A stretch of 64,000 nt of DNA. Source: Minisyncoccota bacterium. GTDB taxonomy: Bacteria; Patescibacteriota; Minisyncoccia; Phycocordibacterales; JABAAK01. Within the stretch, counting starts at the first letter, position 1; each line of letters opens with the position of its first letter. Shown here one piece after another: positions 17,675-40,019 of the stretch. The translations under genes were made by a program, and so were the position numbers. The stretch covers positions 468,622 to 532,621 of the forward strand of contig OZ241963.1 in NCBI GenBank assembly GCA_965204115.1, given 5' to 3'. The notes under the pieces were generated by a model. The model searched no databases. It saw nothing but the letters and a program-made list of their open reading frames with translations, and was not told where the DNA came from.

Positions 17675-17715
17675 CAGCCGCTCGTTTTGTAATTGGTGGT
17701 ATACTGCTGTTATAT

Positions 17716-20700
17716 ATGTCGTTCTCTCGCTCTCTCTTTATCCTTTCCCTCATCCTTGGCGGGATGGTTTTCCTCCTCTTCGGCACTGCGCATGCGCGGG
17801 AGCGGCCCTCCTGGGATTCGTTCTCCTCGGAATATGCCGGTGTCGGTGTTGGGTATCGGGCAGGCGTGCGATTCTTTCGGGATGTCTCTGCTGATTTAGA
17901 GGGAGGAGACCCCACGCCGTCATTTTCTGTGAAAGTGGGGACCTCGCTTCCTGCGGGGCTGCAGCTCACCGGCACCGGCTATCTTGTTGGTGTGCCGACT
18001 GCCGCCGGAGTGTCGAAATTTACCATCGTGGCAAGCAATGCCTCCGGTATTGCGGAAAAACGGGTCACCTTACACATTCGTGAGCCATTCGGTGATACCA
18101 CCTATGGGCAGGGAGAGGTGCACAGCAGTATCCTTGATGCTCAAGTGTTTCTCAACAGCACCGATTGCCCGGTCGCGGCGTCAGGAGTAGGGTCACCAGG
18201 CAAGGAGGTTCTCTCATTCACTCCCGCCCTCAAGCAAGCCACCACCTGCTATCAACAGCTGCACTCTCTTCCCGCCACCGCCACCCTCACCCCGGCTCTC
18301 CTCCAACATTTCATCCAAACCTACACCGGTCGCTTTATTCCCGGAGATTTCACCCTGCCACCCGGTACCGTTCCGCTTTCTTCACCGCTCTGGAGTGATG
18401 ATCGTGTCACCTACACCACCTTTTCCAATGCACCCGTTACCCGCGACCTCTCTGATTCCCTTGTGCGCGGTTACCCCTCACCATCCTTTTCTGTGCAGGC
18501 AGGAACTGCTCTCCCGATTGGGCTTTCCCTCAGCGACTTCGGCATCATCTCCGGTACCCCCACCACTCCCACCACCGCTGATACCACCATTGTCGCCACC
18601 AATTCCTCCGGCAGCGCATCGTTTCGTATCGCCTGGACTGTGCGGGAAGGCGGGTACTCCCTCGGCTCCACCCACCCTGATGTTCGTCAGGCGCAGGTGT
18701 ACCTGAACGGCACTCCGTGTCCCATCGCCAGCACTGGCTCCGGTTCCCCCGGACAGGAGACCTCCTACTTCGGCACCAAGACCCGGCAGGCACTCAACTG
18801 CTACCAGCGGTTGCACAGCCTTCCTGTCACGAACACCATCACCCCAACGCTCCTCACACACCTGTCAAGACATTACACCCCTCCCGCTCTAAACAGACCT
18901 CAGGAGGTCTCCACACCTCTACAATCACCACTCGATCCGCCTCCTGCCCCTGCTGTTGTGCCCCAGGATGGTGTCTGCGATATCACTGTTTCGCAGGGAT
19001 GTGCCGTCGGCACCCCCGTTCAGCATGAACCCTCCTATATCTCCTTAGGAGAGCGCTGGCGCTGTCGTGGTGTCAACAACGGCTTCAGCTCTGACTGGTG
19101 TGTCCGCTGTGACGACGGCTATTCCTTTGACGGAAGAAACTGTTCCCGCAGCACCGCACAGGGTTCTCCCGGACTCCGCTGCTCCGGCACCACTGTCTCT
19201 TTCTGCCGCCTCCCTCGCTCTGCGCACGGCAATACCGTTGCCGGCGCCTGCTCCACAGGTCGCATTGGCTCTTGCGAATATGCCTGTCGTGACGGCATCT
19301 GGACTGCTGTGGCGAACAGCTGCACAAAACCAAGCCCGTGTGTCGGAAGCACTGTTGCCGGCTGTGTTCTGCAAGATACCCGACACGACACTCTCACCGA
19401 CGGCTCCTGTGCCGACGGCTCCACCGGCGCCTGCCGTTACCGCTGCACAAACAGTGTCTGGAAAGCTGTTTCTAACACTTGTGCTCGCGCCTGTGTTGAC
19501 GGTACTTTCTCCGGCTGCGCGGTGGACGCTGCTTCACACGATGCTGTCGGCGGCTCCTGTACTGCCGGCTATACCGGCTCGTGTGCGTACCGCTGCACTG
19601 ACGGCATCTGGAGCAGAGTTTCAAATACCTGCTCGGTGATACCTGTCGTGGAGAGTCAGAGGCGATCGTGTATCGAGGGCATTTTCTCCGGCTGTGCGCT
19701 GGACACCACCTCGCATAGTGCTGTTGACGGCTCCTGTGCCGTGGGCTATGTCGGCTCGTGCGCGTACCGCTGCGCTGACGGCTCTTGGAGTCAGGTTTCA
19801 AATACCTGTTCGGCAATATCTCCTGTGATGACTCAGGAGCAATTGCCCGGACCGTCTTTGGGCTGCTCGGCCAATGTTTTTTCTCACTGCGCTTTAGATG
19901 CTGTTTCTCACAGGGCGGTTGCCGGTTCGTGTGAGAGAGGGTACACCGGGTCCTGTCAGTATGCGTGTGGTAACGGGGAGTGGAATTTTGTTTCAAACAC
20001 CTGCACGCGACAGGCCTCCTTGGCCCAAAGAGTCATTACCCCGATAGTTTCCACCGTGTCGCGACTGGTCGGTGGCGGTGGCTCTACCAATGGCGAGGGA
20101 GGTGTTAGTAATGACGGGGGATATGTTAGGAAAAATACCGCATGCTTAGGCCAACAAAGTGTGGACGGTGTTTGCGACGGTCAGGGCGGGTGTTCTTCGG
20201 GGAAGAGGCGCGATCCGGGAGGGTCATACTGGACGCACGGCTCCTGTTCCGACGGCAATATTGAACGGTCGTACAGCTGTATAGGGCAGTGTGGCGGTTC
20301 AGACGCTTCATGCTCAGGCACTACGGTTTGTGATTTGGGGTGTAGTTATGGTTATGCACTTGATGGGGAAACCAGCAGCCCGCGGTGTAATAACTGCGCT
20401 TCGGACAGCGACTGTAGAACGGGAACTTTTTGCGAAAGGGGTCGGTGCATTATCGGTGTGGGAGCACGGGGGATTCCAACCTTCAGAATCGATCGTCTGG
20501 ATGAACTTCGTCAATGCGGGTGTGATACCTATGATGCGTTCTGTAGTAACAATCGCTGTACTTTCTGTTCTTGCAGCATCTTTGATGTCACGAAGAAGGA
20601 GTACAAATCAACCGGGAAATTGTGCAGTGTTACCTCTGATTGTTCAGGCGCTTCGGAAGTGGCGGGAGTTACCTGGGACAGCGAAGGGTGTCATTGTCAG

Positions 20701-23503: not shown

Positions 23504-26062
23504 ATGTCTCCATTCTCGGCAGTGTGGCGTGTTTTCCTGCTTACCCTCGGTTTGACAGTGCTTATCAGCGTGGGTTTTCTCGGGGTGGCGGACGCGCAAG
23601 AGTCTACAACCCGCCGAAGCCCCTTGGATTTGGTAACAACCTGTGCCGCTGATGAATATGCCACCAGAACCAAAGAGGGCATCGTCTGCAAGGCGCCCAC
23701 AGACAACTGGGATAGTGAGGCCACCGCAGGCAGTCACTGCAGAACAGGACAGTTTCTGAAAGTTACCCCAACCGGCCTGCAGTGTTTTCCCTTCAGCGAC
23801 AAGACCAGCACCTACACCACCTACTGCTCCGACTGCTGCGGAGTTGAAGAATTTGCCGTCATCACTACCCTGGGGTTGCGTTGCGCGGGTGCCAGTTGTT
23901 CCAGTGACAGTGAGTGTGCTGGTAATGCCCACTGTGACCCCATCATCAACCGCTGTGTGCAGTGTGTCGGTGACAACTGCGGGGAGTGTGTCTGGGACAC
24001 TAACTACTCCTGTGATTCTGCGCAGCCGACAAAACGGGTCAAGCATTGTCGATTCTCCGGGGTTATACGGAATACGCAGTTCCTGACCTGTCCGCATAAC
24101 GGGACCTGTTCGGGTGGGGCGTGTGTGTGTGTGCCGAAAACTTCCGGGGGCTGGACTGCCGCGCCGTCGTGTGCCGCGCCGTCCTCCGTGCGGTGTGACA
24201 CAGCCATTCCCGATAAGTATGGCACCTGTCGGTACGGCACCACTGCGGCTTGTGAGACGATACAGTGTACCGGCACGCGACCGACGCGAACCTGCACCGG
24301 CAGGGGTACCTATTGCCCGACCGGTCAACAGTGTGGCGTGTATGGCTGCTATTCTCCGACAGGCACCTCCCCTTCTTCATACAGTCCTGCTTCGTATAGT
24401 AGTGCCCCTTCTTCATACACTCCTTCCTCCTACCCCCCCTCCTCCTATGTTGACTCCCCTCCTTCCTATCCTATTGTTGACCCCCCTCCTTCTATTGACT
24501 GCAGCAGCAAATCCTCTTGTGGGTGTTTACAAGACCAGTGTGTGGGTAATCAGGCGTACAGTTGCTCCTGTGTCGCTCGTTCGGGTCGCTGCGTTCTGAG
24601 TCGTACGCTGACCCCGTGTTCGCATGGTTGTAGTAACGGTTCATGTGATGATGACAGCCGAGGGAAGGGGGGAGGTGTAGGTGTTCGTGATCAAGGAGGC
24701 AGTTGTCCTTCGCCGAGCTACACCTGCGGTAATTGGAGCGGAGGATGTCTTACGGCGGGCAGTTTTGGCGGGTTGGTTACCGGGAACAGCAAGATACGGA
24801 GGTGTACCTGTGAATCTGAAGGCTGCTGTGATCAGGGGTCAGAGTGGTTAGAGCACGGGAATTGTAGTCAAGGCACATCAACGAATACGAAGAAGACATA
24901 CACCGGCACATGGTCAAGAGGGAGTTGTAGTTCCTCGAAAAAGATCTGTGGTATAGGAAACTTTGAGACTGAAACTTTCACCTGCTCTGTGACCTGTTCC
25001 GGAGGCGCCTGCGATCCGACTACAAAACCGAGCGGATCATACAGTGTTGAAGGAGGGTGTTGTAATGGTGGGGTAGGTATAGCATGTACTACTGATGTGC
25101 AAAGAAAACAATATGAAGACACAAGGAAGGGCGCAGAACTTGTCGTAGACACCCTCACAAGTAACCATTGTCATACGGGTGGTCGGTGTGTAACATGCTC
25201 TTCAATAGTCGGTGGACATGAGGACACCGGTCATGGTTGCGGCCCTCATAATAGTGACAGCTCTGCTACCCCCCCGTCCTACCCGCCGAATAGTTACCCT
25301 TCAGATAGTGAAGATAGTGATACTCCTCCCTGCAGCCCTAATGAGTGTGGTTGTTCTAACACCGGGACATGGTGTCATGGGGGTTCATCAGAGAGGTCAT
25401 GTTATTGCGCAGTGAGCAACGGGTCGTGTGTAAGGAAATATTCTACATCATCTTGCGCTAGTGGGGTCTGTAGCGGCGGGTCATGTACCTCAGCCGGTAA
25501 TACTCCGAATAGTTATCCTCCAAAAAGTTACTCGCCAAAAAGCTACAGTCCAAAAAGTTACTCTCCGAGAAGTTACAGTCCAAGAAGTTACTCTCCGAGA
25601 AGTTACCCTTCAGATAGTGATACTCCTCCCTGCAGCCCTAATGAGTGTGGTTGTTCTAACACCGGGACATGGTGTCATGGGGGTTCATCAGAGAGGTCAT
25701 GTTATTGCGCAGTGAGCAACGGGTCGTGTGTAAGGAAATATTCTACATCATCTTGCGCTAGTGGGGTCTGTAGCGGCGGGTCATGTACCTCAGCCGGTAA
25801 TACTCCGAATAGTTATCCTCCAAAAAGTTACTCGCCAAAAAGCTACAGTCCAAAAAGTTACTCTCCGAGAAGTTACAGTCCAAGAAGTTACTCTCCGAGA
25901 AGTTACTCCAAGAAGCCGAGAAGTTACAGTCCAAGAAGTTACTCTCCGAGAAGTTATTCCTCATCATCAGCGAGCCTCCATTGTCATTGGGGTGGTAAGT
26001 GCAGAACCTGCGGAGAAGGTCAAGGACACGAGGATACTGGTCACAGTGGTTGCAGTCATTAG
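23504..26062 (+). CDS. Giant secreted Cys-rich protein, paralogous to the C-terminal half of 17716..22224
   Basis: Signal peptide. Many Cys-rich modules. Two tandem copies of TPPCSPNECGCSNTGTWCHGGSSERSCYCAVSNGSCVRKYSTSSCASGVCSGGSCTSAG followed by SY(S/P)P(K/R) repeats. His/Cys tails HCH.GG.C.TC...GHEDTGH.GC. Confidence 0.75.
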   Translation: MSPFSAVWRVFLLTLGLTVLISVGFLGVADAQESTTRRSPLDLVTTCAADEYATRTKEGIVCKAPTDNWDSEATAGSHCRTGQFLKVTPTGLQCFPFSDKTSTYTTYCSDCCGVEEFAVITTLGLRCAGASCSSDSECAGNAHCDPIINRCVQCVGDNCGECVWDTNYSCDSAQPTKRVKHCRFSGVIRNTQFLTCPHNGTCSGGACVCVPKTSGGWTAAPSCAAPSSVRCDTAIPDKYGTCRYGTTAACETIQCTGTRPTRTCTGRGTYCPTGQQCGVYGCYSPTGTSPSSYSPASYSSAPSSYTPSSYPPSSYVDSPPSYPIVDPPPSIDCSSKSSCGCLQDQCVGNQAYSCSCVARSGRCVLSRTLTPCSHGCSNGSCDDDSRGKGGGVGVRDQGGSCPSPSYTCGNWSGGCLTAGSFGGLVTGNSKIRRCTCESEGCCDQGSEWLEHGNCSQGTSTNTKKTYTGTWSRGSCSSSKKICGIGNFETETFTCSVTCSGGACDPTTKPSGSYSVEGGCCNGGVGIACTTDVQRKQYEDTRKGAELVVDTLTSNHCHTGGRCVTCSSIVGGHEDTGHGCGPHNSDSSATPPSYPPNSYPSDSEDSDTPPCSPNECGCSNTGTWCHGGSSERSCYCAVSNGSCVRKYSTSSCASGVCSGGSCTSAGNTPNSYPPKSYSPKSYSPKSYSPRSYSPRSYSPRSYPSDSDTPPCSPNECGCSNTGTWCHGGSSERSCYCAVSNGSCVRKYSTSSCASGVCSGGSCTSAGNTPNSYPPKSYSPKSYSPKSYSPRSYSPRSYSPRSYSKKPRSYSPRSYSPRSYSSSSASLHCHWGGKCRTCGEGQGHEDTGHSGCSH
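25307..25915 (+). repeat. Tandem duplication of an about 300-bp cassette (2 copies, above 95% identical); a third about 90%-identical copy lies in the neighbouring gene at about 21791..22100
   Basis: The stretch gatactcctccctgcagccctaatgagtgtggttgttctaacaccgggacatggtgtcatggggg...agttactctccgagaagttac is repeated with a period of about 300-309 bp. The homologous stretch in gene 17716..22224 differs at a few positions. Confidence 0.85.
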
Positions 26063-26197: not shown

Positions 26198-28063
26198 CTA
26201 CTTCGGGAGCCAGGTGTCGACCCACTTGAAGCGGTTGGGGGCCTGCTCCCTGGTTAACTCACGAGTTATTGATAGCCAGTAAAGAGCATAGAATTCGGCG
26301 GCATTTTCAGACATGTCGTTTCTGTAGTATGGGTCTTGATCAAGGATCAGATGTTCTCCGACTTCTGCCCGATCTTTCCTTGTTGCCTCTATAAATGCCT
26401 TGCCTTCTGCTGTCTCTTCCCAGTCAAACACACTGCCGCTGCCGTCTATGGAAACCACGGCGTGCTGATGTGCGTGGGTGATTTCATGCACAAGTATTAC
26501 TCGAAAAGTGAGTTCGTTAAAATCCTTAAGTGCCCAAAGCGTCCAAACTATTCCATCGCCGTACCATCCGCCGGATCTCATCGGAGTTGACAGTTCTCTG
26601 GCATCAACATACAGCAGGTCGTGCACCACCGTGACTTTGCTTAACACCTTTCGCGCTGTATCCGGCCATCGGTGTCCCACCAGTATGTTTCCCGGGGTGT
26701 TTTGCACATCTTTGGGGAAATTCATCTTTACCCCATTTGCCAGTGTTGTCGGGCGGGAGCGGTGCACCAGCACCTCTTTGGGCTCAAAGCCCTCCTTCTC
26801 CACACGCAAGTGTAGTGCCTCTCCTCCGACATTGCGGAAGATGTATCGTCCGTCTCGATCGGTGATGATTCGTTTCCCGGATACCGGTCCTGACAGTGCG
26901 GTGACGGTTGCTCCCGGTACCGGATATACGCGGGAGCGGTAAAAATGTTTGGCACTTATCGGCTGTTGGGGAATATACACAAATCCGGCGAGGTCTTGCG
27001 CACCGGGGCGGGCGGTGTCTCTCGTGATTATCTCCGGCGGTGGTTCCAGTATGTGCAGTGTTTCTGCATGCACATACTGCTTGGCCATTTTCACTCCGTT
27101 CTTGCTTGCGCTTTCCCTGCCGACAATAAGGGTGAATTTGCCGCGGTCGTTGGGCTGTATCCGATATTTGCCGATATAGGTTGCGGGAGTTTTGCCGGGT
27201 TTGGTGTCACCAGGGGCATAATACTTCCCTGTGGCATCAAGCGGCACGATGTTGTGCCGAATATCCCTGCCGTCAATACGGTAATACAGTTTCGGACGAG
27301 CGTTGATGCCATCTGAAACTGCCTGCTCCATTTCCTCAGAGAACATTATCTTGGTGTAGACAAGTGTCCCTGGTGGTATGGCGTCAGTTATTGGTTTCGT
27401 TAATCGTCCGTCGCTGTAATAGCCGACCGATTTAACCGTTGGAGCTGAAGGTTTCCCGAGCCGCAGCTTCTCCTTGTGCGTGTAAAACGCCGGGAGTGCG
27501 TTGCCCTCAAGGTCAACACTCAATTTGCCGATAGCAAACACAAATTCGCCAGTATCTTTCGGTTGTACGGTATATTTACAGATAAAGGATGTCGTTGTCT
27601 TTCTCGGTTTCGCATCGCCGGAAGAAAAATCTTCACCCTTCGCGCCGAAATCCGCGATATTGAAACGGGTGGTTTTCCCGTTTATCCTGCGATACAGGAT
27701 GGGACGGGATTGCTTGCCATCAGCAACAACCAGCTTCATGCTCTCAGAGAACTCCACCTTGATATAGATGGTTTTCCCTGCAGGTACCGCTCCGGTCAAT
27801 GGTTTTGTTAACTTCCAGTCGCTGTAATAGTTGACTGATTTGACTGTCGGAGCGCCTTTCACTTTTTGCAACATCGGCGCGCCGGGTGCGGTGTCTGGCA
27901 TTTTCAAGCTGCCGACTGTCTCCGCAGCGTCTTCTTTTATTCCGACCGGGTTTTCTATCTCTTCGTCGCCGCAGCCGGTGATATGTATAGCAAATACAAT
28001 AATTGCGCACATCACTGCCACAATATGGATCAGGGATACCTGATCCAACCTTTTCCTTCTCAT
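26198..28063 (-). CDS. Secreted lipoprotein zinc metallopeptidase (HExxH) with two duplicated N-terminal beta domains and a CarboxypepD_reg-like domain
   Basis: Lipobox HITGC. Internal duplication VKSV(N/G)YYSD..LTKP...(about 120 aa, two copies). Segment TVTALSGPVSGKRIITDRDGRYIFRNV. C-terminal VILVHEITHAHQH (HExxH) followed by EFYALYW. Confidence 0.6.
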   Translation of the reverse strand: MRRKRLDQVSLIHIVAVMCAIIVFAIHITGCGDEEIENPVGIKEDAAETVGSLKMPDTAPGAPMLQKVKGAPTVKSVNYYSDWKLTKPLTGAVPAGKTIYIKVEFSESMKLVVADGKQSRPILYRRINGKTTRFNIADFGAKGEDFSSGDAKPRKTTTSFICKYTVQPKDTGEFVFAIGKLSVDLEGNALPAFYTHKEKLRLGKPSAPTVKSVGYYSDGRLTKPITDAIPPGTLVYTKIMFSEEMEQAVSDGINARPKLYYRIDGRDIRHNIVPLDATGKYYAPGDTKPGKTPATYIGKYRIQPNDRGKFTLIVGRESASKNGVKMAKQYVHAETLHILEPPPEIITRDTARPGAQDLAGFVYIPQQPISAKHFYRSRVYPVPGATVTALSGPVSGKRIITDRDGRYIFRNVGGEALHLRVEKEGFEPKEVLVHRSRPTTLANGVKMNFPKDVQNTPGNILVGHRWPDTARKVLSKVTVVHDLLYVDARELSTPMRSGGWYGDGIVWTLWALKDFNELTFRVILVHEITHAHQHAVVSIDGSGSVFDWEETAEGKAFIEATRKDRAEVGEHLILDQDPYYRNDMSENAAEFYALYWLSITRELTREQAPNRFKWVDTWLPK

Positions 28064-28378: not shown

Positions 28379-31300
28379 TATGGTTGTGCGTTGTTTTTTC
28401 TATCTCTTTCTTTTTTTTGGACTATTCTTATCACCGGTTGCCATCGCGGAAGGTGCTGTTGTTTCCGGTGCCGCTCCGGGGGAGATGAAAGATGTGTTGG
28501 TGGATTGCCTGTCACTGGCGGATGAGCGGGATGCCTGCTATGCGACTGCTTGCGAGTATGAGCCCGGGTACTTGTGTGCGGAAGATGTGCTTGATGTGGT
28601 GGTAGAGATTGCCGGTCCGGAGCGAGCGATGGGGGTGCTGCACGAGATAATGGCGAGCCCTGTGTTTGCTATTACCTCTGACGGGCATCTGTTATCGCAT
28701 ATTGTCGGTCGAGCGACATCGCGCGTGTTCGGCTCTTCAGGGAACAATTTCTTGCGCTGTCCTTCTGACTTTAACAACGGTTGTTTTCACGGTTTTTTTG
28801 AGGACACCCTTCCGAAATCGGATTCGCCGGTGGATGTGGTTGTTTCTATTTGCGAGAATATGCCTCCTGACACACCGTTGAAAGAAAAATCCTATTGCTA
28901 TCACGGTGCGGGGCATGTGTTTATGATGCAGGTGAGCCATGATCTTGATGCTGCAATTGATCTTTGCCTGCAGGTGCCTGAGAATTGGTCGGAGAGTTGT
29001 TGGCAGGGGGTTTTTATGGAGAATGCCGGTGAGCGGGAGTGGGAATTGAAGCGGAAGAATTTTCGGGAAGATGAGCCATTGTATCCGTGTACCGCTGTTG
29101 AAGATCGTTTTAAGACCGAGTGCTATGTCAATCACCACGGATATCTTATCCGGCACTATAGCGAGTCATGGGATGAACTTGTTGCTGTATGTCTCGGTGC
29201 GGAGGATTTCACGCATGCCTGTCTCGGTGGCTTGGGGCTCATGCTCGGCAGTGATTTTTGGACTACCATCGTCGCTCAAGGGACACCTGTTGAAGGTAGG
29301 CCCCACACGGAGCAGGTGGTTTTTCTCTGTAATCAGTTTCCCTATGATTACATAGATGTTTGTTACTCCAATCTTATCCCTTCGTTTCTTAATTTTGACG
29401 GCACGGATATTCGAAATGCCTCAGGGGTGTGTGCTCTTGCCGATGCAGAGCATCGGCATGCTTGCTTCGAGCGCATCGGCTCTTACCTGAGTAATTTAGT
29501 TTCCGATGAGTCGGAAAAGATTGCTGTATGCCATAGTGTTCCGAGAGAATATCGTGATGCGTGTTTGGGTGTGCGTTCGGAAGAGTTTGATGGATATGTA
29601 GATAGGGAGGTGTCCGAGGGCACTGCGGCTAATGGTTCCGGTTCATTTTTCTCTAGAGCAGTTCAGTTTCTTTCCGCGTTATTTGGCCGTTTAGCAACGG
29701 CTTTTACGCGACCGGTGCATGCACATTCTGGTGGTAGTGATGAGCAGGATCTGTCTCGGTATGCGCACCCTGAATTGCATCAAGGTCTTGAGGTGTGTTT
29801 ATCGTTGCAGGAGGGGAGGGATATGTGTTATTTGTCTCTGTGTGATGGTGCTGTTGGGTTTCTTTGTGCGGAGGATGTACTGCATACCGCCACGGTCGGT
29901 TTTGGTCCCGAGGTGGCGATGCAGGTGTTGGAGGAGATGATAGCAAGCCCCCTTTTTTCATTCAATGCGGCGAACGAAGGGCACAGCTTGGCGCATGCTA
30001 TTGGGAGAATAACTGCACAGCACTTCGGTGGCACCGGCGATGCCTTTTTGCGATGTCCCACTGCACTTGATTATGGCTGCCAGCATGGGTTTCTTGAGGA
30101 TGCGTTGATTAGAGTTGACTCTCCCGCGGAGGCGGTGACGAATATTTGTGAAAGTTTGCCGGCAGTGCCGACGATAGGTCGACCGAATTGCTACCATGGT
30201 TCGGGGCATGGAGTGATGATGAATGCGAGCTATGACCTTGCTGAGGCACTTGCTGTGTGTGATCAGGTTCCCGATCCTTTGAGTTGTTTTACCGGAGTTG
30301 CTATGGAGAATGTGAGTGGGAAGACCTCCGGTAGAATACAGGAACTATATGCAGAGCATGACAGTTTTGAAAAAGATAACCCGCTGGCGCCCTGTGACAC
30401 ACTGACTGACACACTTCATCGCAGGGCGTGTTATCGACAGCACATGCCGTATTTGGCATCTTATTTCAGCCATGACCTGCAGGATGTGGTGGATGCCTGT
30501 CTTGGTGCGGGTGATCCTGTTGATATTCGTGATTGTGTGTTTGGCTTCGGTGCGTATGGTATCTATGACGGCATTCAGGAGAGTTTTCTTCACGGTTTTG
30601 AGGGTGATTTTATGGACAAAATAATTATTATGTGCAATCAGTTTCCTGAGGAATACCGCATGCATTGCTACACACCGGCGATTGATCAGTCGACTGTTTT
30701 TTATCGGGTGAAAAGGGCTTCTGATTTTTGTTATAAGATTGACGCGCGATACATGCGGGAGTGTTTCAATGTCATCGGCGATCGTTTGAGGAGTTTAGTT
30801 GTTGATCGTGACGAGACAGAAGCAGAGTGCTCTTCAGTTCCTGAGGAGTATCGGATTGAGTGTACTGATCCGCATCGGCATCAAGGGGAAGATGTCTCTG
30901 TTGATACGCCTTTTGGCGTGATAGCGGTTGAGCAGGCATCCGATTCTTTATTTGCGTGGGTTAAGCAGCTTCTTTCTGACATTGTTGCGGATGTATTCAG
31001 TGTGCTTGGTATGTTTGCTCGCCCTGTTTCCGCGCAAAGTGTTGCTGTGCCTTTAGCTGAAGGGGTGGAAAAATGTTTGGAGCAAGGGGGTGAGGTGGCG
31101 TGTTATGCTTCGCTGTGTGCATATGAGTCAGGGTATTTGTGCGCGGAGAGTATTTTGGAGGTGGTGACGAAAGGGTGGGGTCCTGAGGTTGCTATGGAAA
31201 TACTGATGAATATGATACAGAGCCCACTTTTCTCTTTTAGTCCGTCATCAGAGGGGCATAACTTAGCTCATACCGTTGGTCGGGTTACAGCGCAATGGTT

Positions 31301-33419
31301 TGGATCTGATGGAGTGTCATTTATCAGATGCCCGACTGATCTTGCGTATGGCTGTCACCATGGGTTTTTTGAGGTTGCACTTGTCGCATCGGAAGGCGAC
31401 CCTGCCGCCGCGGTTCACAGCATCTGTGAGCATATGCCGGATAAGCCGGAGTTGGGGAAGGTGAGTTGCTATCATGGTGCCGGTCACGGGATAATGATGC
31501 ATGAGAGCCATGACTTAGATAGAGCACTTGCGGTGTGCGATCAGTTGTCTCACGGGCGGAATATTTGCTATGATGGTGTTTTTATGGAGCATATTAACGC
31601 AAGGCATGGTCTCGGATCGGAGAATAATCAGTTTGATGTTCATAATCCCCTTGCGCCGTGTAATGTTGTTGCAGAGAAGTATCGGCATGATTGCTTCTAT
31701 CGGCATGGGAACTATCTGTTCCCCTATTTCGGGTATTTATTGGAGGATGTTATTGAGGCGTGTCTCGGTGCCGGTGAGCACATTGAGGTGTGCTTGACTG
31801 CTGTTAGCGGCTCTTTGTTTCTTCCCAGTTTTCAGGAGCGGGTGTTTCCCGGTATGCGAGGTTCATTAGCGGATAAGGCGACGACGATATGCGGTGTGTT
31901 TCCTGATGGGTACAAGCGTGTCTGTTATGTTGTTTTTGCCGGAGAGGCGACTATTTTTCATGGAGCGAAAGAGGCATCAACTCTTTGCTCTGATGTTGAT
32001 AAGGTATATCAATCGTTATGCCTGAGAGAGGTTAATAGGAGAGTTAATGATTTGGCGGCAACTGATTACGAGCGAATTGCGATGTGTGCTGCTGTTTCTG
32101 AAGAGTACCAGCATGTATGCTTGTCTGAAGGTGATTTTGATCGTCGTTCTGATCAGGCTGAGGAGACAGCAAGTTCCACCCCCCCCTCTTTTTTACACGA
32201 CTTATTTGCTTATGTGGATAGTGTTGTGCGCTCATTTTTTTCCGCGGTTGTCGCTATAAAGCGTCCTATCAAGAATGTATCTCATGCTGATTGTGATGCC
32301 TCTCCTGTATGGCGATATGTGGGTGATTTTGTGTATGGAGGTGTTGGGGATCGTGACTATTTCGGGGATGCCGTCTCTTTATTCGGCACTACGCTTGCGG
32401 TTGGTGCGTTTGGAGATGATGCTGGTGATATTGACACTGGGGCGGTGTATTTGTTTGAGTTGGGGGGTGGCGCCCTCGGAGATCCGTTACTTAAAATTTC
32501 CGGCGAGCAAGCAGGAGAGGGATTGCTTAATGTCGGTTTGGAGGCGAGAGATCGTCTTGGCAGAGGTTTGTCACTTCAGGGCAATACTCTTGCGGTGGGC
32601 GCGTATTATGATTCAGAAAAGAAGGGGGCAGTATATCTGTTTGAGTCGGATGCTGAAGGTGTTTGGAGTCAGTCGCTCAAGATATCTGACAATGAAGGTG
32701 GTAAAGGATTACTTCCGATTTCTCTGAGTCGTGCCGCTCATTTTGGCGCATCTGTGTCGTTGCACGGTAACAGATTGGCAGTCGGCGCATATTTGTCTGA
32801 TGACGGTATGGGTGCGGTGTATCTGTTTGAGAGGGATGCTGACGGTATTTGGTCATACCTGTTGAAGTTGTCCGGGACAGTTGTTCCGCATGAGCGGGAT
32901 GCTGCGTTTGGGCGATCTGTTTCCCTGTATGGTGATTTTTTGGCAGTCGGCGCACCTCGGAGTGGCCCTGGAGATACCGGGGCGGTATATCTTTTTAATC
33001 GCGATGCATCTGGCACATGGGATCTTGTGTTAGAATTTTCTGTCACTGGTGCGGGAGTTGACTTGTCAGAGGGTCTGGATGAGAATGATCATTTCGGAAC
33101 CTCAGTTTTTCTTCGTGATACTGTTCTTGCGGTCGGTGCGTATGGAGATGATAGTGAAATTGCTGATACCGGAGCAGTGTACTTATTTGAGAAGAGTGTC
33201 GGCAGTAACTGGGAGCAATCGTTGAAGATATCTAATGCCAGTGAGTTATTCATCGTGCCTCTTGAGGAGGGCGGGATGTTCGGGAGTGCTGTCTCGTTTT
33301 CCGATGAGGTGTTAGTTGTCGGTGGATACCTGTATGATAGCGGGGGCACTGAAAGAGGTGTGGTTTATTTATTTGAAAATGAGTTGCAAAATACTTGTTC
33401 TGCTCAATATCGCCTATGA
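28379..33419 (+). CDS. Giant secreted protein: three copies of a novel Cys/His-rich module of about 400 aa, followed by a C-terminal FG-GAP beta-propeller
   Basis: Signal peptide. Module hallmarks recur three times: (E/G)RDACY..LC.YE.GYLCAE.VL, GH.L.H.VGR, FLRCP.D...GCFHGFFE, CYHG.GHG.MM, C..GVFMEN, DNPLAPC, ACLGAG. The C-terminal roughly 370 aa carry seven FG-GAP-like blades (FG.SVSL.G..LAVGA...D.GAVYLFE). Confidence 0.7.
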
Positions 33420-34651
33420 TTATGTTAAGCCGTGTAAAAAGAAAAAGTGTGCCATTTGTTATTGCGGTCATTTTTTTGATTATTCTTTTCACACTTGCTT
33501 TTTTGTTTGTGGGGGCAACAGAGGATCAAAGGGGTGGTCATTCAGCAATGATGCGTTCTGTAAGTCGGTGTTTAGAGCGGGATGGTGAGCGAGATGCGTG
33601 CCTTGCATCTTTGTGTGAACATGAAGTTGGCTATTTGTGTGCTGAACATGTTGTTGATATGGCGACTAAGGTTGGTGGACCTGAGGCGGGAATGGATGCT
33701 TTGCGGCAGATATTGGAGGGTCCTGTTTTCGGAATTGACTCAAACGGGCATCAGTTGGCACATATTGTGGGCAGGGCATCTTCGTTGCACTGGGGATTCT
33801 CCGGTGATGTTTTTAATCGGTGTCCTATTGATTTTGACTATGGTTGTTTGCATGGTTTTTTTGAGATTGCCATGACCAAAGTTGACTCCCCGACGGATGT
33901 ACTTGTTAGTATTTGTGAAAATGCATCTAACGGTCCGAAGTTTGATAAAGTGAATTGCTATCACGGCGGCGGACATGGTGTCATGATGAATGAGAGTTAC
34001 AACCTTGATAAGGCGCTCTCAGTATGTGATTCTTTGCCGGCTGATTTCATGCGTCGGGATTGTTGGGGAGGTGTCTTTATGGAGAATAATAATAGGTTTC
34101 GAAATGGTTTGGTGGCGGATGAACAGAGCACATTCCGCTCGGACAATCCGCGCGCGCCTTGTGACTCTGTGGCAGATAAGTATCGGCATTCGTGCTGGAT
34201 ACTTCATGCTGATTATCTGATTAACGCCTACAGCACTTCATTGGATGATTTGATTGATGTTTGTCTTGGGGCCGGTGATTATGTTGAGGGATGTTTGCAT
34301 GGTGTCGCCAGGATATTTTCCGCTGAACGGCAGGATGTTATACTCCGCGGATCTGATATTGAGATAGAGGGAGACTTTGTCGATCGCACTTTCCAGTTAT
34401 GCGATAAGTTTCCCGATGATTATGTGCAGTCATGCCATTTTTTTGTTGTTGAGCATTTTATATTTCCGTATAAACTTCGCACTGGCTTTGATCAGGCACA
34501 TAAATATTGCATGCTCGTTGATTCTGATCGGGGTGAATGTTTTGAAAGAATAGGAATTCGTCTCAGCGATTTGATGGATGATGACGCGCGAGTGGCTATG
34601 TGTGAGGCTGTTCCACCTGAATGGCGCGATAGGTGTTCCGATGCTCGGTAA
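33416..34651 (+). CDS. Secreted protein with a single Cys/His-rich module; paralog of the 28379 modules
   Basis: N-terminal TM or signal segment. Same motif set: ERDACLASLCEHEVGYLCAEHV, GHQLAHIVGR, FNRCPIDFDYGCLHGFFE, CYHGGGHGVMM, GVFMEN. Overlaps the upstream stop by 4 bp. Confidence 0.6.
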   Translation: MIMLSRVKRKSVPFVIAVIFLIILFTLAFLFVGATEDQRGGHSAMMRSVSRCLERDGERDACLASLCEHEVGYLCAEHVVDMATKVGGPEAGMDALRQILEGPVFGIDSNGHQLAHIVGRASSLHWGFSGDVFNRCPIDFDYGCLHGFFEIAMTKVDSPTDVLVSICENASNGPKFDKVNCYHGGGHGVMMNESYNLDKALSVCDSLPADFMRRDCWGGVFMENNNRFRNGLVADEQSTFRSDNPRAPCDSVADKYRHSCWILHADYLINAYSTSLDDLIDVCLGAGDYVEGCLHGVARIFSAERQDVILRGSDIEIEGDFVDRTFQLCDKFPDDYVQSCHFFVVEHFIFPYKLRTGFDQAHKYCMLVDSDRGECFERIGIRLSDLMDDDARVAMCEAVPPEWRDRCSDAR

Positions 34652-34707
34652 TAGGTTGCAGTGTTTTACTGAAATTGATGTTGTGTCATACTGTTACTAT
34701 TGTGCTT

Positions 34708-36216
34708 ATGAGAAAAGAGTTGTTGGCAGTTATTTTTTTGCTTTTCCTGTGTGTGGCGTTGAGTGTATTTTTTGTGCTTGATTTCGGTTTTGATGGCGCT
34801 GATCGCGCTTCACCGGATGTGGCTTTGACGCCTGCTATGGATTCAGAGAAGTTGTTGTATGACGATGCGTTTATGGATGAGATGCTGCAGTTGTATTCAC
34901 TGCGGTCGTTGACCGCTTCGCTGAGCCGTCTTGGGTCTGTGAAAGGGATTGATTGTCATGATCGCGCGCATGAGCTGGGGCGGCGGGCGTATGAGACGGT
35001 CGGTTCTGAGGCGTTTAAGAGTTGTGGCATTGAGTGTCATTCCGGCTGTCGGCATGGTGCTACCGAGGCGTTTTTTGCTGATAAGGGGACCTCCGATTTA
35101 ATCAGTGGCATGGGGGTTCTCTGCGGAGATGAGATGGGCAATAAGTTTCATATGCACCAATGTATTCATGGTATTGGGCACGGACTGATGGCGTGGTATG
35201 ATTATGATTTGCATAAGGCGTTGCAGGCGTGTGATTTGATAGAGCACCCGTTTCATCAGGGCTCTTGTTATTCTGGTGTGTTTATGGAGAATATCGTGGG
35301 CAGTATTGTTCGTGACAAATCGGTTCCTGATGGGGAGGTGTACCATCATACAGATTTTTTGAGTGATGATCCGCACTACCCATGTAATGCGATTGCTGAT
35401 CGGTACAAGTGGCAGTGTTACTGGGGTCAGACGGATCGCATGCTTCAGCTTTCTGGAAATATTAACTTATTAGGGGATTTTTGCGCCGAGTCACCGGAGT
35501 TTGTTCATGGTGCTTGTTTTCATAGTATGGGGCGAACCACCTCCGGTTTTTTTTCTCGTGACATAGGGCAGAGCTTTGCAGTGTGTGACGCGGTTCCTGA
35601 TGCTGCAAACAGAAATATCTGTATGGGGGGTGTGTTGTCTGATCTTTTTTGGGATCAAACACATGCCGATCGAGCGGTGGCTTTTTGTGAGATGTCATTA
35701 AACACTTCGTTTGAAGAGCGATGTTATGAAAACCTGATTATCAGGGCTTCTGAGACTGTTTCCGATGTGGATATGCGGTGGTTCTGTGAGAAGTTGCCTG
35801 ATGCCTACTATGAACAATGTGCGCATCAGGAGACACCGCGGGCATTTCCTATTTCTACACAGGGCGATATCTCGCCTGTCGCCGTGGAGAAAACCGATAC
35901 CGCGGTTATTCGGTATGTGGATGGCAGGTATGTTCCTGATGCGGTTCATATCTCAGTCGGGCAGGAGGTGGTGTGGGTGAATGAGGATGGTAAACGGTTG
36001 TTTTGGCCTGCGTCTAATATCCACCCGACGCATACTGCGTACCCGGGGTCTGCTATTCAGAAGTGTGGTACTGATGAGCAGGGGGGTATTTTTGATGCAT
36101 GTGAAGGGTTGCCGCGTGGCGCGGAGTATTCATTTGTGTTTACCGAGGTGGGGCAGTGGCGGTTTCACGATCATATCAATCCGCGGGCAGCGGGTACGGT
36201 GATTGTTTCTGAGTGA
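34708..36216 (+). CDS. Secreted protein: Cys/His-rich module (divergent) plus a C-terminal His-cluster beta domain
   Basis: Signal peptide. Module variant CHDRAHELGRRAYE...CHSGCRHGATEAFF...CIHGIGHGLMA...GVFMEN. C-terminal 110 aa: WPASNIHPTHTAYPGS...CGTDE...FHDHINPRAAGTVIVSE. Confidence 0.65.
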   Translation: MRKELLAVIFLLFLCVALSVFFVLDFGFDGADRASPDVALTPAMDSEKLLYDDAFMDEMLQLYSLRSLTASLSRLGSVKGIDCHDRAHELGRRAYETVGSEAFKSCGIECHSGCRHGATEAFFADKGTSDLISGMGVLCGDEMGNKFHMHQCIHGIGHGLMAWYDYDLHKALQACDLIEHPFHQGSCYSGVFMENIVGSIVRDKSVPDGEVYHHTDFLSDDPHYPCNAIADRYKWQCYWGQTDRMLQLSGNINLLGDFCAESPEFVHGACFHSMGRTTSGFFSRDIGQSFAVCDAVPDAANRNICMGGVLSDLFWDQTHADRAVAFCEMSLNTSFEERCYENLIIRASETVSDVDMRWFCEKLPDAYYEQCAHQETPRAFPISTQGDISPVAVEKTDTAVIRYVDGRYVPDAVHISVGQEVVWVNEDGKRLFWPASNIHPTHTAYPGSAIQKCGTDEQGGIFDACEGLPRGAEYSFVFTEVGQWRFHDHINPRAAGTVIVSE

Positions 36217-36293
36217 TTTTCACCGTTCTGTTGCATGTGGTACAGTGTGGTCAGAAATTGACGCTGTGTCAGTTGTGTATTTTGGTGTAAAAA

Positions 36294-38495
36294 GTGATTT
36301 CCCGAGATGTTTTCGGGAAGGAGGAATGCAGAGTGAGTAGATTGACGGAGATTATAACGGTGATGATTGTGTTTATTGTTTCAGTGGTGCTATTTTCGCC
36401 ATACACCCACGGCGATATTCGATTTGAGGAAGTTTCACACCACGCAGGGATTGTGCGAGTTGGTGAGAGTTGGGGGAATGCTTGGGGTGACTTTAACGGA
36501 GATGGATACCTTGACTTGTGGGCAACGAATCATCGGCATAAGCCGTGTCTCTATCAGAATAACGGTGACGGTACTTTCACGAATGTCATTGACGAGGTTT
36601 GGAACGCGAATCCATCTGCGGACACCCATGGTGTCGCGTGGGCGGATTTTGACAACGATGGTGACCAAGACCTCATTGTTCTGTCAGGCGGTACTGGTGG
36701 TCTTAATAACAGGGCTCGTGATAACAATGCTAATCATTTGTATGTAAATACTGACGGGCAGTTGGTGGAGCGAGCTGCTCATCTCGGCGTGGATTATCCG
36801 CTTTTGCGGGGGAGGACGCCGCTGTGGCTTGATTGGAATGGGGACGGTTTGCTTGATGTTCTATTAACCGGTGTTGCCCGAAAGGATGCATCCGGAGCGC
36901 TTGTCAGATCAACCCTCTTCAGTCAGGTGGATGGACGGTTTAAAGATGTGAACAGTATTTCAGGATTCTCTCTGGAGGAGAGTGTGGAATTTGCGCAACT
37001 AACGCACCTGACCGGTGAAGAGGGATTACACCTCATTTGCGGTTCTCATTCCCATATATATCCCGCTGCTGTGTACGACTTGTCGGGTGCGCTCTTGCAT
37101 AACATAACAGGTGCTTTGAATTTGCAGGGTGGCTTTGTTGTTCAGGATGCCGCAATTGCGGATATGAACGGCGATCTGCTGCCGGACATATTTCTTGCAC
37201 GGGGTATTTATCCGTCCAGTGTTCGTCAGCCGAGTGCGCGTAGGTTGGAACTTAATATTCAGAGCACCTTAGGGGTGCTTCCCCAATCTATCCTTGAGGA
37301 GAAGGGTGTCAGTTTCAGATCTGACGGCGCGGTGTTTTTTGAGGTTTATTCGGAATGGAAGCCGCGTCGTGATTTGGTTAAGATCGGCTCGGGTGGGCAT
37401 CCGGTAACATCTTTTGACAGTGGCATCTTTGCCGGTGTTATGCCGGACCTTAAGGCAGCGTCTTTTAAAGTTCGGCTGTCGCCGAGTAATCCGAGAGCCC
37501 AGGGGTTGCAGGCGCGTCGGGAAAATGAAAAGTTTGGGATTTACATAGGGTACAATGCCCGCACAAAAAAGTGGGAAATCCTTTATCGCAATCTGCCCGC
37601 GACAACATTGGTTGAGGCGGGCAATCCCATAACAGATGTGGAACCATTCAATTTCTTCCCTTCGGTTAATATGCATGGTGATTTGCTGATGCACAAGGGG
37701 AATGATTTTGAGGTGCTGTCTCCGTTGGGTGAAGCAGGGTTTCCGGATTGTCATTCTGTTGCGGCGGGGGACTTTGATAACGATATGGATGTTGATCTGT
37801 ATCTTGTCCGCTCAAGTACGGGTGAAAACCTCCCGAACTGTCTGTATGAGAATAATGGTGTCGGATATTTTATCCGAGTCAGGAATGCTGGCGGAGCGGC
37901 GGCGAATGTGGATGGCAGAGGTCAAAGTGTTACTGTTGCTGATTATGACCGGGACGGCTTCCTTGATCTTTTTGTGACCAACGGGAGAGGGGCGTACCCT
38001 TTCAGTGAAGGCCCCGACCAACTTTTCCGTAACCGTGGTAACAGCAACAACTGGCTTCAGATTGATTTAGAGGGATCTGTTTCCAACAGAGACGGTATCG
38101 GCGCGAAGGTTCTCGTCGTGACACCTGACGGAAAAACACAAGCGCGAGAAAACGGCGGCGGCATCCACTGGGCGCAGCAAGATCAGAAGCGTATTCATTT
38201 CGGGCTTGCGCAGAATGACAGCATTGTTGAGCTGACCGTTTTTTGGCCGAGCGGTATTGTGCAGAGGTTGCGGAATGTGGCGGTAAACCAGGTGCTGCGT
38301 ATTATTGAGACCGATGTTCAGGAGTCCCTCCACGGTGATGTTAATCAAGATGGGGTCGTCAATGTTTTGGATCTTGTTATTGTGGCGAAGCACTTCGGTG
38401 AAAGTCCTCTCGCTGATGTGTCGGCTGATGTGAACAAAGACGGGGCAGTGAATATTCTGGACCTCGTTGCCATCGCAAATGTAATGAGCAAATAA
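36294..38495 (+). CDS. FG-GAP repeat / ASPIC-UnbV (CRTAC1-like) protein with a C-terminal type-I dockerin
   Basis: Multiple FG-GAP Ca-binding loops (FNGDGYLDL, ADFDNDGDQDLIV, LDWNGDGLLDV, GDFDNDMDVDLYLV, ADYDRDGFLDLFVTNG). ASPIC/UnbV signature NRGN..NWLQIDLEG..SNRDGIGAKV...HFGL....ELTVFWPSG. C-terminal DVNQDGVVNVLDLVIVAKHFG and DVNKDGAVNILDLVAIANVM form a dockerin duplicate. Confidence 0.7.
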   Translation: MISRDVFGKEECRVSRLTEIITVMIVFIVSVVLFSPYTHGDIRFEEVSHHAGIVRVGESWGNAWGDFNGDGYLDLWATNHRHKPCLYQNNGDGTFTNVIDEVWNANPSADTHGVAWADFDNDGDQDLIVLSGGTGGLNNRARDNNANHLYVNTDGQLVERAAHLGVDYPLLRGRTPLWLDWNGDGLLDVLLTGVARKDASGALVRSTLFSQVDGRFKDVNSISGFSLEESVEFAQLTHLTGEEGLHLICGSHSHIYPAAVYDLSGALLHNITGALNLQGGFVVQDAAIADMNGDLLPDIFLARGIYPSSVRQPSARRLELNIQSTLGVLPQSILEEKGVSFRSDGAVFFEVYSEWKPRRDLVKIGSGGHPVTSFDSGIFAGVMPDLKAASFKVRLSPSNPRAQGLQARRENEKFGIYIGYNARTKKWEILYRNLPATTLVEAGNPITDVEPFNFFPSVNMHGDLLMHKGNDFEVLSPLGEAGFPDCHSVAAGDFDNDMDVDLYLVRSSTGENLPNCLYENNGVGYFIRVRNAGGAAANVDGRGQSVTVADYDRDGFLDLFVTNGRGAYPFSEGPDQLFRNRGNSNNWLQIDLEGSVSNRDGIGAKVLVVTPDGKTQARENGGGIHWAQQDQKRIHFGLAQNDSIVELTVFWPSGIVQRLRNVAVNQVLRIIETDVQESLHGDVNQDGVVNVLDLVIVAKHFGESPLADVSADVNKDGAVNILDLVAIANVMSK

Positions 38496-38504
38496 CAGTG
38501 TTTA

Positions 38505-38537
38505 CCCGCAGGCAATGTCTGCGGGTCTACTTTTTTG
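38505..38537 (+). terminator. Rho-independent terminator after 36294..38495
   Basis: CCCGCAGGCAATGTCTGCGGG hairpin followed by CTACTTTTTT. Confidence 0.65.
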
Positions 38538-38612
38538 TGGTGTGGCGATTGTTTCTGAGTGATTTCCACACAGTTTATTGCTCTTGCCCGTTGCGGTGTA
38601 TACTTGGTGTGT

Positions 38613-40019
38613 ATGGTTACTGAGAGGGTTTTTATTTTGTCTTTCTTGCTTGCATCTTTTTTTGCTGTTTCTTTGCTTTCTGCTGGTGTTGTGTATGCGC
38701 ATGGGGGTGAGGAGCATGCTGGGTTGGCGTCTGAGGTGAATGTGTGTCATTCGTTGTCGGAGGCGGAGCGAAGAGCATGTTATTCGGCGACCTGTGAAGG
38801 TGGTGTGACGGATGAGTGTCTGGAGGATATTGTTGATGCGGCGGTGGATGGTTCCGGTTTGAGGTTTGCTAATGCTGTGATGGCTGACTTGGAGAGTGCT
38901 GGGCTGTTAGATGATGCTGGCGTGTCTTTGTACGGACTTGCGCAACGAATAGGGGAGGTGATGGCACAGCAATATGTTGATGGCTTAGGGCCTATGACTT
39001 TTATGGATTGTGAGGTTGACCATCATTACGGGTGTCATTATGGGTATTTTGAGAAAGTGCTCTCTGCAGATGGTGTTTCGCTGGACATCATTTCAGCTGT
39101 TATTTGTGATGTGGATACTTCTCAGCAGGATGTGTGTTATCATCGGATGGGGCATATGTTTTTGAAACACCATAACTACTCGCTCTCTCCTGCGCTCTCT
39201 CAGTGCGATGCGTTGCCGAGCGCATTTCGAGCATACTGTTGGGATGGGGTGTTTATGGAGAATGTGAATGAATTTTTCTTCTCCAGGCGTGAGGGAGGTG
39301 ATGGGTTTATCAGTGATGAGCGGCCATTTGCCCCGTGTGATGCTATTGATGAGCGGTATCGTGAGCAGTGTTTTAAGAATCATGGTAGGTATCTGATTTA
39401 TTGGTTTGAGGATGCCCCTTTTGATGTGTTGGATGTTTGTGGTGACATTGAGGTCGGTGAATACGACGAGGTGTGTCGGCACTCAATTCGGGATGCCTCT
39501 TCCGGTGTGGATAGTCACCATACGCATGACGATATGGATACTATGCGTGGTGATGGGGTGGCGGATTCACGGTCATGGTTTCAGAAGCTGATTGACTTTG
39601 TTGTTGGGTTGTTTTCTGGTGGAGGTTCATCGGATCGGGTTGGTTCAGATGGTGAGGCATTTTCACGCATGTTTCCTGATGGTGTTGCACCGAGTGAGGT
39701 GGACCATAGTGTTATGATTTCCTATGAGAATGGGCAGTTTGTGCCGAATGAGGTGCGTATCGCGCCCGGGCAGGCGGTGCTGTGGATGAATAATGATCAG
39801 GTGTTTTGGCCTGCGGGGGATTTGCACCCGACGCACCGTGAATATCCCGGATCAAATATTACGAAGTGTCATACTGATGAGCGGTCAATGATTTTTGACG
39901 CATGTGAGGCGATGGGTCCCGGCGCGGCGTATGCTTTTCGGTTTAATGAAGTCGGTGAGTGGAAATTCCACGACCATATTAATCCAAAAGCGACGGGTAC
40001 GGTGATTGTGTCTCGCTGA
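38613..40019 (+). CDS. Secreted protein: Cys/His-rich module plus a C-terminal His-cluster beta domain; paralog of 34708..36216
   Basis: Signal peptide FILSFLLASFFAVSLLSAGVVYA. Motifs ERRACYSATCEGG, DCEVDHHYGCHYGYFE, CYHRMGHMFL, GVFMEN, FAPCD. C-terminus WPAGDLHPTHREYPGSNITKCHTDE...FHDHINPKATGTVIVSR. Confidence 0.65.
   Translation: MVTERVFILSFLLASFFAVSLLSAGVVYAHGGEEHAGLASEVNVCHSLSEAERRACYSATCEGGVTDECLEDIVDAAVDGSGLRFANAVMADLESAGLLDDAGVSLYGLAQRIGEVMAQQYVDGLGPMTFMDCEVDHHYGCHYGYFEKVLSADGVSLDIISAVICDVDTSQQDVCYHRMGHMFLKHHNYSLSPALSQCDALPSAFRAYCWDGVFMENVNEFFFSRREGGDGFISDERPFAPCDAIDERYREQCFKNHGRYLIYWFEDAPFDVLDVCGDIEVGEYDEVCRHSIRDASSGVDSHHTHDDMDTMRGDGVADSRSWFQKLIDFVVGLFSGGGSSDRVGSDGEAFSRMFPDGVAPSEVDHSVMISYENGQFVPNEVRIAPGQAVLWMNNDQVFWPAGDLHPTHREYPGSNITKCHTDERSMIFDACEAMGPGAAYAFRFNEVGEWKFHDHINPKATGTVIVSR

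Follow-up and report, generated by a model that had tools for sequence, protein, structure and literature searches.

Introduction

Several described systems come close to the proteins considered here. The Sel1-like proteins HcpB and HcpC of Helicobacter are secreted and built from alpha/alpha hairpin repeats, each held by a Cys-pair staple of the form C-x7-C. Deoxyhypusine hydroxylase is a HEAT-repeat di-iron enzyme in which the His/Glu motifs of consecutive solenoid hairpins together build the metal center, and EfeO pairs a Cupredoxin_1 (Cup) domain with a helical metal-binding M75 domain (HxxE). The non-coupled binuclear copper monooxygenases PHM and DBM have a CuH site of three His and a CuM site of two His plus Met. 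Here we analyze a gene array (genes A to E) in a 64,000-nucleotide stretch of contig OZ241963.1 from a Minisyncoccota bacterium, the whole of which we call the window. Genes A, B, C and E carry a shared Cys- and His-rich module of ∼400 amino acids (aa), and C and E end in a cupredoxin-like domain. As far as the libraries searched show, the module is an undescribed extracytoplasmic protein family. The same applies to the cassette that its two paralogous types, T1 and T2, form with the cupredoxin-like domain, whereas the cupredoxin fold of the partner and the FG-GAP, ASPIC and dockerin domains nearby are known.

Module identity and fold

Self-BLASTP of the window proteins placed three module copies in A and one each in B, C and E, with 24–41% identity between copies (41% for A1 versus B) and E-values of 1e-16 to 1e-91, far beyond chance. 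A preliminary description of this DNA, made from the sequence alone, had recognized the same six copies and rightly judged them more similar than chance. The shared module that it defined by a list of invariant motifs is real, but the motifs are not all invariant in the six copies, because C is a divergent paralogue that lacks both the N-terminal '(E/G)RDACY..LC..GYLCAE' motif and 'ACLGAG'; the copy in E is in addition truncated. Gene A, which had been given a start at 28379, is in frame from 28380.

No known family accounts for the module, as that description had also supposed. Searches of Pfam and NCBIfam with hmmscan at E ≤ 1 returned no family for B or for the module regions of A, C and E, and the window proteins did not match the Sel1 repeat (PF08238) in Pfam even at this threshold. 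Among 78 further family members, hmmscan gave matches to cupredoxin families, one to ZnuA and a few weak strays, none of them attributable to the module. Against PDB sequences, neither phmmer nor hmmsearch with a 37-sequence profile yielded anything for the module below E = 2, and Foldseek with the module model found no PDB match at E ≤ 1e-3, with template-modeling (TM) scores of ∼0.2. Literature searches for the module by keywords and motif strings found nothing relevant.

Gene B was used as the reference copy for the structure model. AlphaFold2 (AF2) predicts it to be all-alpha with ∼20 helices (predicted local distance difference test score, pLDDT, 93.5; predicted TM score, pTM, 0.87). Because a profile-profile comparison of the N-terminal and C-terminal halves of the module matched (hhalign, 96.4% probability, E 1e-9), the module has true internal repeats. 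These form an alpha-solenoid of ∼nine helical hairpins built on the unit C-x7-13-C-x2-G, and we treat this fold class as established.

The preliminary count of ∼20 conserved Cys fits B, which has exactly 20. These are compatible with ten consecutive pairs, namely eight C-x7-13-C pairs in register with the hairpins and two pairs in the N-terminal Cys cluster. Across 365 non-identical module copies, the set behind all conservation figures given here, the pairs are kept at 95–100% with the exception of C136/C144 (86–87%) and the last pair, C396/C407 (74–76%). C136/C144 is the strongest covarying pair: both Cys are present in 315 copies and both absent in 49, and a single copy has one of them, which amounts to co-loss in 49 of 50 cases. 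This all-or-none pattern in 364 of 365 copies agrees with the disulfide stabilization proposed earlier and is the mark expected if each hairpin has one disulfide staple, with the pairing read from sequence. Every module carrier also starts with an N-terminal signal peptide or anchor, in line with the secretion that had been proposed.

Judged by its Cys spacing, the module has the one-disulfide-per-alpha/alpha-repeat arrangement of the Sel1-like/Hcp family, and like HcpB and HcpC it is a secreted set of stapled hairpins. It differs from them in a more variable staple (C-x7-13-C), a fixed number of ∼nine hairpins and an invariant His/Met/Glu cluster that is absent in Hcp.

Family spread and paralogy

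An exhaustive profile search retrieved 7,312 clusters (50% identity) at E ≤ 1e-3, of which 2,296 also reached E ≤ 1e-30. A word-indexed search had returned 21–42 relatives, and the picture of a rare family that it gave was misleading. Proteins of the family carry up to eight modules. We confirmed 183 relatives, one genome per species, and based all locus analyses on the best 80 genome relatives among them, all 80 being metagenome-assembled genomes (MAGs). The family occurs in >10 phyla of Bacteria and Archaea. Carriers among the best 80 from the candidate phyla radiation (CPR) include Peribacteria, Saccharibacteria, Paceibacterota, Spechtbacteria and others; archaeal carriers are DPANN (Woesearchaeota, Nanoarchaeota), Methanosarcinales and Thermoplasmatota; and other bacterial carriers include Actinomycetota, Terriglobia, Gammaproteobacteria, Chloroflexota, Nitrospirales and others. 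With 7,312 clusters that include such lineages, the earlier idea of a system special to CPR symbionts does not hold. One of the module's nearest relatives comes from a sponge-associated Spechtbacteria MAG.

When the 365 copies were clustered, T1 (the three copies of A, plus B and E) separated from T2 (C), and this split is common to different phyla. In 26 cases a T1 gene is followed by a T2 gene of the same strand and in 9 by one of the opposite strand, and 17 proteins are T1-T2 fusions. Each of the four module genes of the window has orthologues of its own, with identities of 80, 58 and 55% for A, 64 and 58% for B, 61, 60 and 58% for C, and 65, 53 and 50% for E. Gene order is largely kept in a 647-kb contig (L085) and in a 697-kb Paceibacterota chromosome (L002); D is not present in the arrays of these two genomes and is outside the conserved gene set. 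Since A, B, C and E have orthologues and share their gene order with relatives, the array is old and maintained and does not reflect a recent burst. Recent duplication, as first assumed, is contradicted by the 24–41% identity between copies, by the separate orthologues (50–80%) and by the cross-phylum T1/T2 split.

We also observed that C is 58% identical to a protein of the DPANN archaeon Woesearchaeota L001 (OZ242164.1) and 50% identical to one of Nanoarchaeota L004, while the corresponding protein of the Paceibacterota chromosome L002 shares 60% identity with it. These values suggest transfer between CPR bacteria and DPANN archaea.

A conserved His/Met/Glu ladder

The second helices of hairpins 0–3 carry a ladder of polar residues, H112-x3-H116, H146-x3-E150, H183-x3-H187 and M222-E223. 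Conservation is 96% for H112 and H116, 97% for H146, 80% for E150, 99% for H183, 100% for H187 and 98% for both M222 and E223, and the ladder is retained in T1 and T2 paralogues alike. As this cluster is so conserved, a metal site at the ladder is plausible, in keeping with the possible metal binding raised earlier. Residues R120 and E150 covary, and the register of the neighboring helices is therefore fixed. In the clade of E, where the module of the window protein is ∼317 of ∼400 aa long and has H112→Y, H116→Q and H146→Y, these three residues change jointly to Y, Q/R and Y, whereas H183, H187, M222 and E223 are kept. From this joint loss we infer two adjacent sub-sites, one of three His (112, 116, 146) and the other of two His with Met/Glu (183, 187, 222, 223).

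Pfam and retrieval searches revealed no homology of the module to type-3 Cu, hemerythrin, deoxyhypusine hydroxylase (DOHH) or PHM-type binuclear centers, and deoxyhypusine hydroxylase itself was not retrieved in the module searches. Deoxyhypusine hydroxylase and EfeO resemble the module and its cassette by analogy only, and neither has disulfide staples. The likeness to PHM and DBM is confined to the presumed ligand composition (H112/H116/H146 and H183/H187/M222), which on our side is read from sequence; those enzymes are beta-sandwiches, the module is an alpha-solenoid, and the two are not homologous.

A cupredoxin derivative as regular partner

The C-terminal domain of C and E, ∼95 aa long, is marked by WPASNxHPTH...FH(D/N)HxxP. 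Its profile matches amicyanin (E 4.5e-9) and the C-terminal cupredoxin of NirK (E 2e-10), and the domain thus has the cupredoxin fold. Relatives match Cupredoxin_1 (PF13473) at E 1e-18, while the window copies stay below threshold (16.9 versus 27 bits). The fold is common to amicyanin, plastocyanin, the purple cupredoxin Nmar_1307 (5fc9) and Cupredoxin_1 of the EfeO/FtrB/CupA type, to all of which the domains of C and E are homologous. The preliminary description had seen a His-cluster beta domain in two genes; the His cluster is real, but its identity as a cupredoxin derivative and regular module partner had been missed.

In contrast to amicyanin-type cupredoxins, the domains of C and E lack the Cys/His/Met ligands and have four other invariant His (HPTH, H-x-H). 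In an alignment with amicyanin, Asp or Asn takes the place of Cys92, and the residues opposite His95 and Met98 vary. A C..H....M loop was found in none of 112 copies, and the four His of HxxH plus HxH (HPTH...H-D/N-H) in 99 of them. We therefore rejected a type-1 blue copper electron carrier as an identity for this domain.

The domain is present at 51 of the 80 loci, fused to the module in 33 and adjacent to it in 19, and 50 of 182 family proteins contain it as a fusion. Conversely, all three stand-alone cupredoxin-like genes from a separate search have module genes immediately upstream. Three proteins (P0025 to P0027) unite T1, T2 and the cupredoxin in one chain; P0025 shares 64% identity with B and 61% with C, and because a fusion of this type joins both, B and C of the window are linked. 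Full-length C was modeled by AF2 with pLDDT 81.8 and pTM 0.67. Its linker has pLDDT below 50, and the position of the domain is left undefined, so that AF2 gives no support for a cupredoxin docked firmly on the module, a reading that we discarded.

In the cupredoxins of C (∼36035-36090) and E (∼39830-39885), 14 residues that include two Cys are inserted, 'YPGS.I.KC.T.E...FDAC'. The same insert occurs in P0025, P0026, P0028 and L038 and is absent in most family members.

Organization of the array

The ORF listing gives five co-oriented open reading frames (ORFs), all on the + strand of the window (Table 1). The start of B overlaps the stop of A by four bases. The C-terminus of A is an FG-GAP/integrin-alpha-type propeller (PF14312, 152 bits against a cutoff of 23). 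It had been described as seven-bladed; the FG-GAP assignment stands (FG-GAP_2, 4e-45), but six repeats are detected and seven blades are not demonstrated. Gene D, correctly described as an ASPIC/UnbV protein with a dockerin and no module, matches FG-GAP_3 (PF13517, 3.2e-28), UnbV_ASPIC (PF07593, 6.6e-17) and Dockerin_1 (PF00404, 2.3e-10).

Table 1. Positions of the genes, module copies, domains and other features of the array (window coordinates).
Feature	Coordinates	Strand	Description
Gene A	28380..33419	+	1679 aa; signal peptide, three T1 modules, FG-GAP_2 beta-propeller
Module copy A1 (T1)	28380..29582	+	aa 1-401 of A; hmmsearch envelope; His ladder intact
Module copy A2 (T1)	29640..30878	+	aa 421-833 of A; self-BLASTP, hmmsearch
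Module copy A3 (T1)	30936..32138	+	aa 853-1253 of A; self-BLASTP, hmmsearch
FG-GAP_2 propeller of A	32247..33416	+	PF14312, 4e-45, six detectable blades
Gene B	33416..34651	+	411 aa; N-terminal anchor helix and one complete T1 module
His/Met/Glu ladder of B, putative metal site	33749..34087	+	codons 112-224, four successive helices
Gene C	34708..36216	+	502 aa; T2-type module aa 1-377, flexible linker, cupredoxin-like domain
Cupredoxin-like domain of C	35893-36213	+	aa 396-502
Gene D	36294..38495	+	733 aa; FG-GAP_3 repeats, UnbV_ASPIC, Dockerin_1; no module
Terminator-like hairpin	38504..38526	+	directly 3' of D
Gene E	38613..40019	+	468 aa; signal peptide, truncated degenerate T1 module aa 1-317, cupredoxin-like domain
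Cupredoxin-like domain of E	39693-40016	+	

The hairpin behind D weakly suggests that A to D are transcribed together and E separately. Another hairpin lies ∼250 nt downstream of E. A promoter and terminator scan found no more such sites than expected from shuffled sequence.

Linkers of A (∼29583-29640, ∼30879-30935, ∼32139-32246) and of E (∼39560-39690) contain amphipathic or hydrophobic helices, for example FFSRAVQFLSALFGRLATAF and SWFQKLIDFVVGLFSG. They stand ahead of every A module and ahead of the E cupredoxin, and they look like the anchor helix with which single-module proteins begin, which would fit an origin of multi-module genes by fusion of whole genes. After predicted signal-peptide cleavage (…A|H; window 38613-38720), mature E would begin with 'HG(G/D)EEH'. 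A similar N-terminal His is found in 20 of 249 family proteins, including P0026, P0028, P0056, P0143 and L004, and could provide an extra metal site resembling a histidine brace or an amino-terminal copper- and nickel-binding (ATCUN) motif.

Genomic neighbors and other fusions

The recurrent neighbors of the family at the 80 loci are PMT_2 GT-C glycosyltransferases (14 loci) and GT2 glycosyltransferases (10 loci). A DoxX-like membrane protein, identified by a weak Pfam match, is a neighbor in 14 Peribacteria loci (e.g. L007 12072-13484). Neighboring genes for 6PGDH, transaldolase and SufD reflect lineage-specific synteny. Two stand-alone copies have VIT1 and Zip transporters nearby. Rarer fusions join the module to FG-GAP_2, to GH3 (6e-61) with LRV/HEAT repeats, to ZnuA (1.9e-74) and to a polysaccharide deacetylase (PF01522). 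As a further observation, the T1-T2-cupredoxin cassette of relatives adjoins genes for a small CxxC thioredoxin-fold protein and a DoxX-like protein (L086 6383-6643 and 2133-2579).

Proposed function and alternatives

We propose that the array encodes a cell-surface cassette for metal (probably copper) binding or redox chemistry that has been expanded in this genome and joined to propellers, and we put the probability of this reading at roughly 40%. Ligand sets of His and Met in an oxidizing, disulfide-forming compartment are typical of copper sites, and the ZnuA fusion is a metal-related one. In the T1 and T2 solenoids, ions would be bound at the His3 and His2-Met-Glu sub-sites, and the two solenoids would normally act as a pair, together with the cupredoxin-fold domain. 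The four-His cupredoxin, tethered by a linker or encoded adjacently, would pass a metal ion or electrons on to the solenoids, whose sites would then carry out redox or metal-transfer chemistry on the cell surface. The basic T1-T2-cupredoxin cassette would here be B plus C; A, with its triple T1 and FG-GAP propeller, and E, a degenerate T1-cupredoxin protein, would extend it and presumably serve to present this chemistry at the surface or to fix it there. To the domain, fold class, disulfide pairing pattern, conservation, paralogy and cupredoxin linkage established above, this proposal adds a conjectured metal site, metal identity, chemistry and direction of transfer.

Several points weigh against this proposal. 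No metal transporter, oxidase, reductase or regulator is a conserved neighbor in the 80 loci, and the GH3, polysaccharide deacetylase and FG-GAP fusions suggest glycans or adhesion over metals. AF2 does not dock the cupredoxin onto the module, as its pTM of 0.67 and the low linker pLDDT indicate, and electron transfer is not implied because the partner has no type-1 site. That the ladder residues meet in one pocket is deduced entirely from helix register, covariation and co-loss. Few copper-dependent processes are known in CPR bacteria. In a bolder version, the module would form the catalytic subunit of an extracytoplasmic enzyme of a new class, with copper or another binuclear metal center. 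Such an enzyme would be built on a disulfide-stapled alpha-solenoid and not on a known metalloenzyme fold, would act as a T1/T2 heteropair with a four-His partner, and would be spread over thousands of bacterial and archaeal lineages and amplified on CPR and DPANN surfaces; we consider this conceivable but doubtful.

The same parts could instead serve metal capture and trafficking without catalysis, the solenoids and the four-His cupredoxin being metallochaperones or buffers for Cu, Fe or Zn that feed or protect the cell, by analogy with CupA, CopC and the Cup domains of EfeO and FtrB. The fusion of one family member to the metal-binding ZnuA, the loss of type-1 electron-transfer ligands from the partner and a flexible tether suited to ion hand-over all speak for it, as do VIT1 and Zip transporters near two stand-alone copies, although adjacency at two loci may be chance. 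We nevertheless think it rather unlikely, since a permease or P-type ATPase is not a conserved neighbor in the 80 loci and since seven near-invariant residues in two paralogues across >10 phyla resemble an active site more than they do a buffer. Somewhat less probable again is a non-enzymatic scaffold or adhesin, a rigid stalk or binding surface comparable to the Hcp/Sel1-like repeat proteins of Helicobacter, serving host or partner attachment in CPR and DPANN organisms with His in structural or ligand-binding roles. In its favor are the expansion to 3 to 8 modules in proteins of small-genome symbionts, the FG-GAP fusion and the ASPIC/dockerin gene alongside, and nearest relatives from CPR and DPANN lineages with apparent cross-domain transfer (the 58% identity to the Woesearchaeota protein). 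However, the family is common in large-genome free-living Actinomycetota, Terriglobia and Gammaproteobacteria, the His5/Met/Glu set is 96–100% conserved whereas binding surfaces usually vary, and the regular pairing with a cupredoxin derivative is left unexplained. A host-interaction role is possible for the CPR-specific expansions. The glycosyltransferase neighbors, which stand between or beside T1 and T2 genes in several phyla, together with single members fused to GH3 and to polysaccharide deacetylase, would fit a glycan-active envelope enzyme (a lyase, a hydrolase or one of oxidative cleavage) with catalytic His/Glu and an accessory cupredoxin. These glycosyltransferases may, however, merely glycosylate the secreted proteins; an invariant Met is unusual in acid/base catalysis, and the module resembles no CAZy-type fold or Pfam family, which makes such an enzyme quite improbable.

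This family of >7,000 clusters in >10 phyla of both prokaryotic domains has no Pfam, NCBIfam or PDB entry. It combines a new helical architecture, predicted with confidence, with a His/Met/Glu set of exceptionally strict conservation. Should the ladder prove to be a copper or other metal center, the few folds that hold biological metal sites would be joined by a new scaffold, and a cupredoxin that gave up its blue-copper site would have gained a new role. The four module genes take up ∼9.4 kb of a ∼660-kb CPR genome, and this outlay in a tiny genome points to surface chemistry that symbionts cannot forgo. The T1-T2-cupredoxin fusions are single-chain targets in which the metal question is directly testable.

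Other features of the window

Upstream of the array lie two large + strand ORFs, one of 1099 aa (13377-16673) with no Pfam match and one of 1538 aa (17608-22221) whose sole Pfam match is PG_binding_1 (2.7e-6). They are followed by a secreted Cys-rich protein of 852 aa (23504-26062, +) with SYSPR/SYSPK repeats and an internal duplication of ∼110 aa; it has the motif 'HCH.GG.C.TC...GHEDTGH' twice and no Pfam match. On the opposite strand, a 621-aa protein (26198-28063, −) contains a CarboxypepD_reg domain (3.4e-8), and its C-terminal 'HEITHAHQH' resembles the HExxH motif of zinc proteases. Most genes of the window are on the + strand. GC skew is positive in nearly all 2-kb bins and the cumulative skew climbs steadily to 4.59, which together with the strand bias is compatible with a single replichore.

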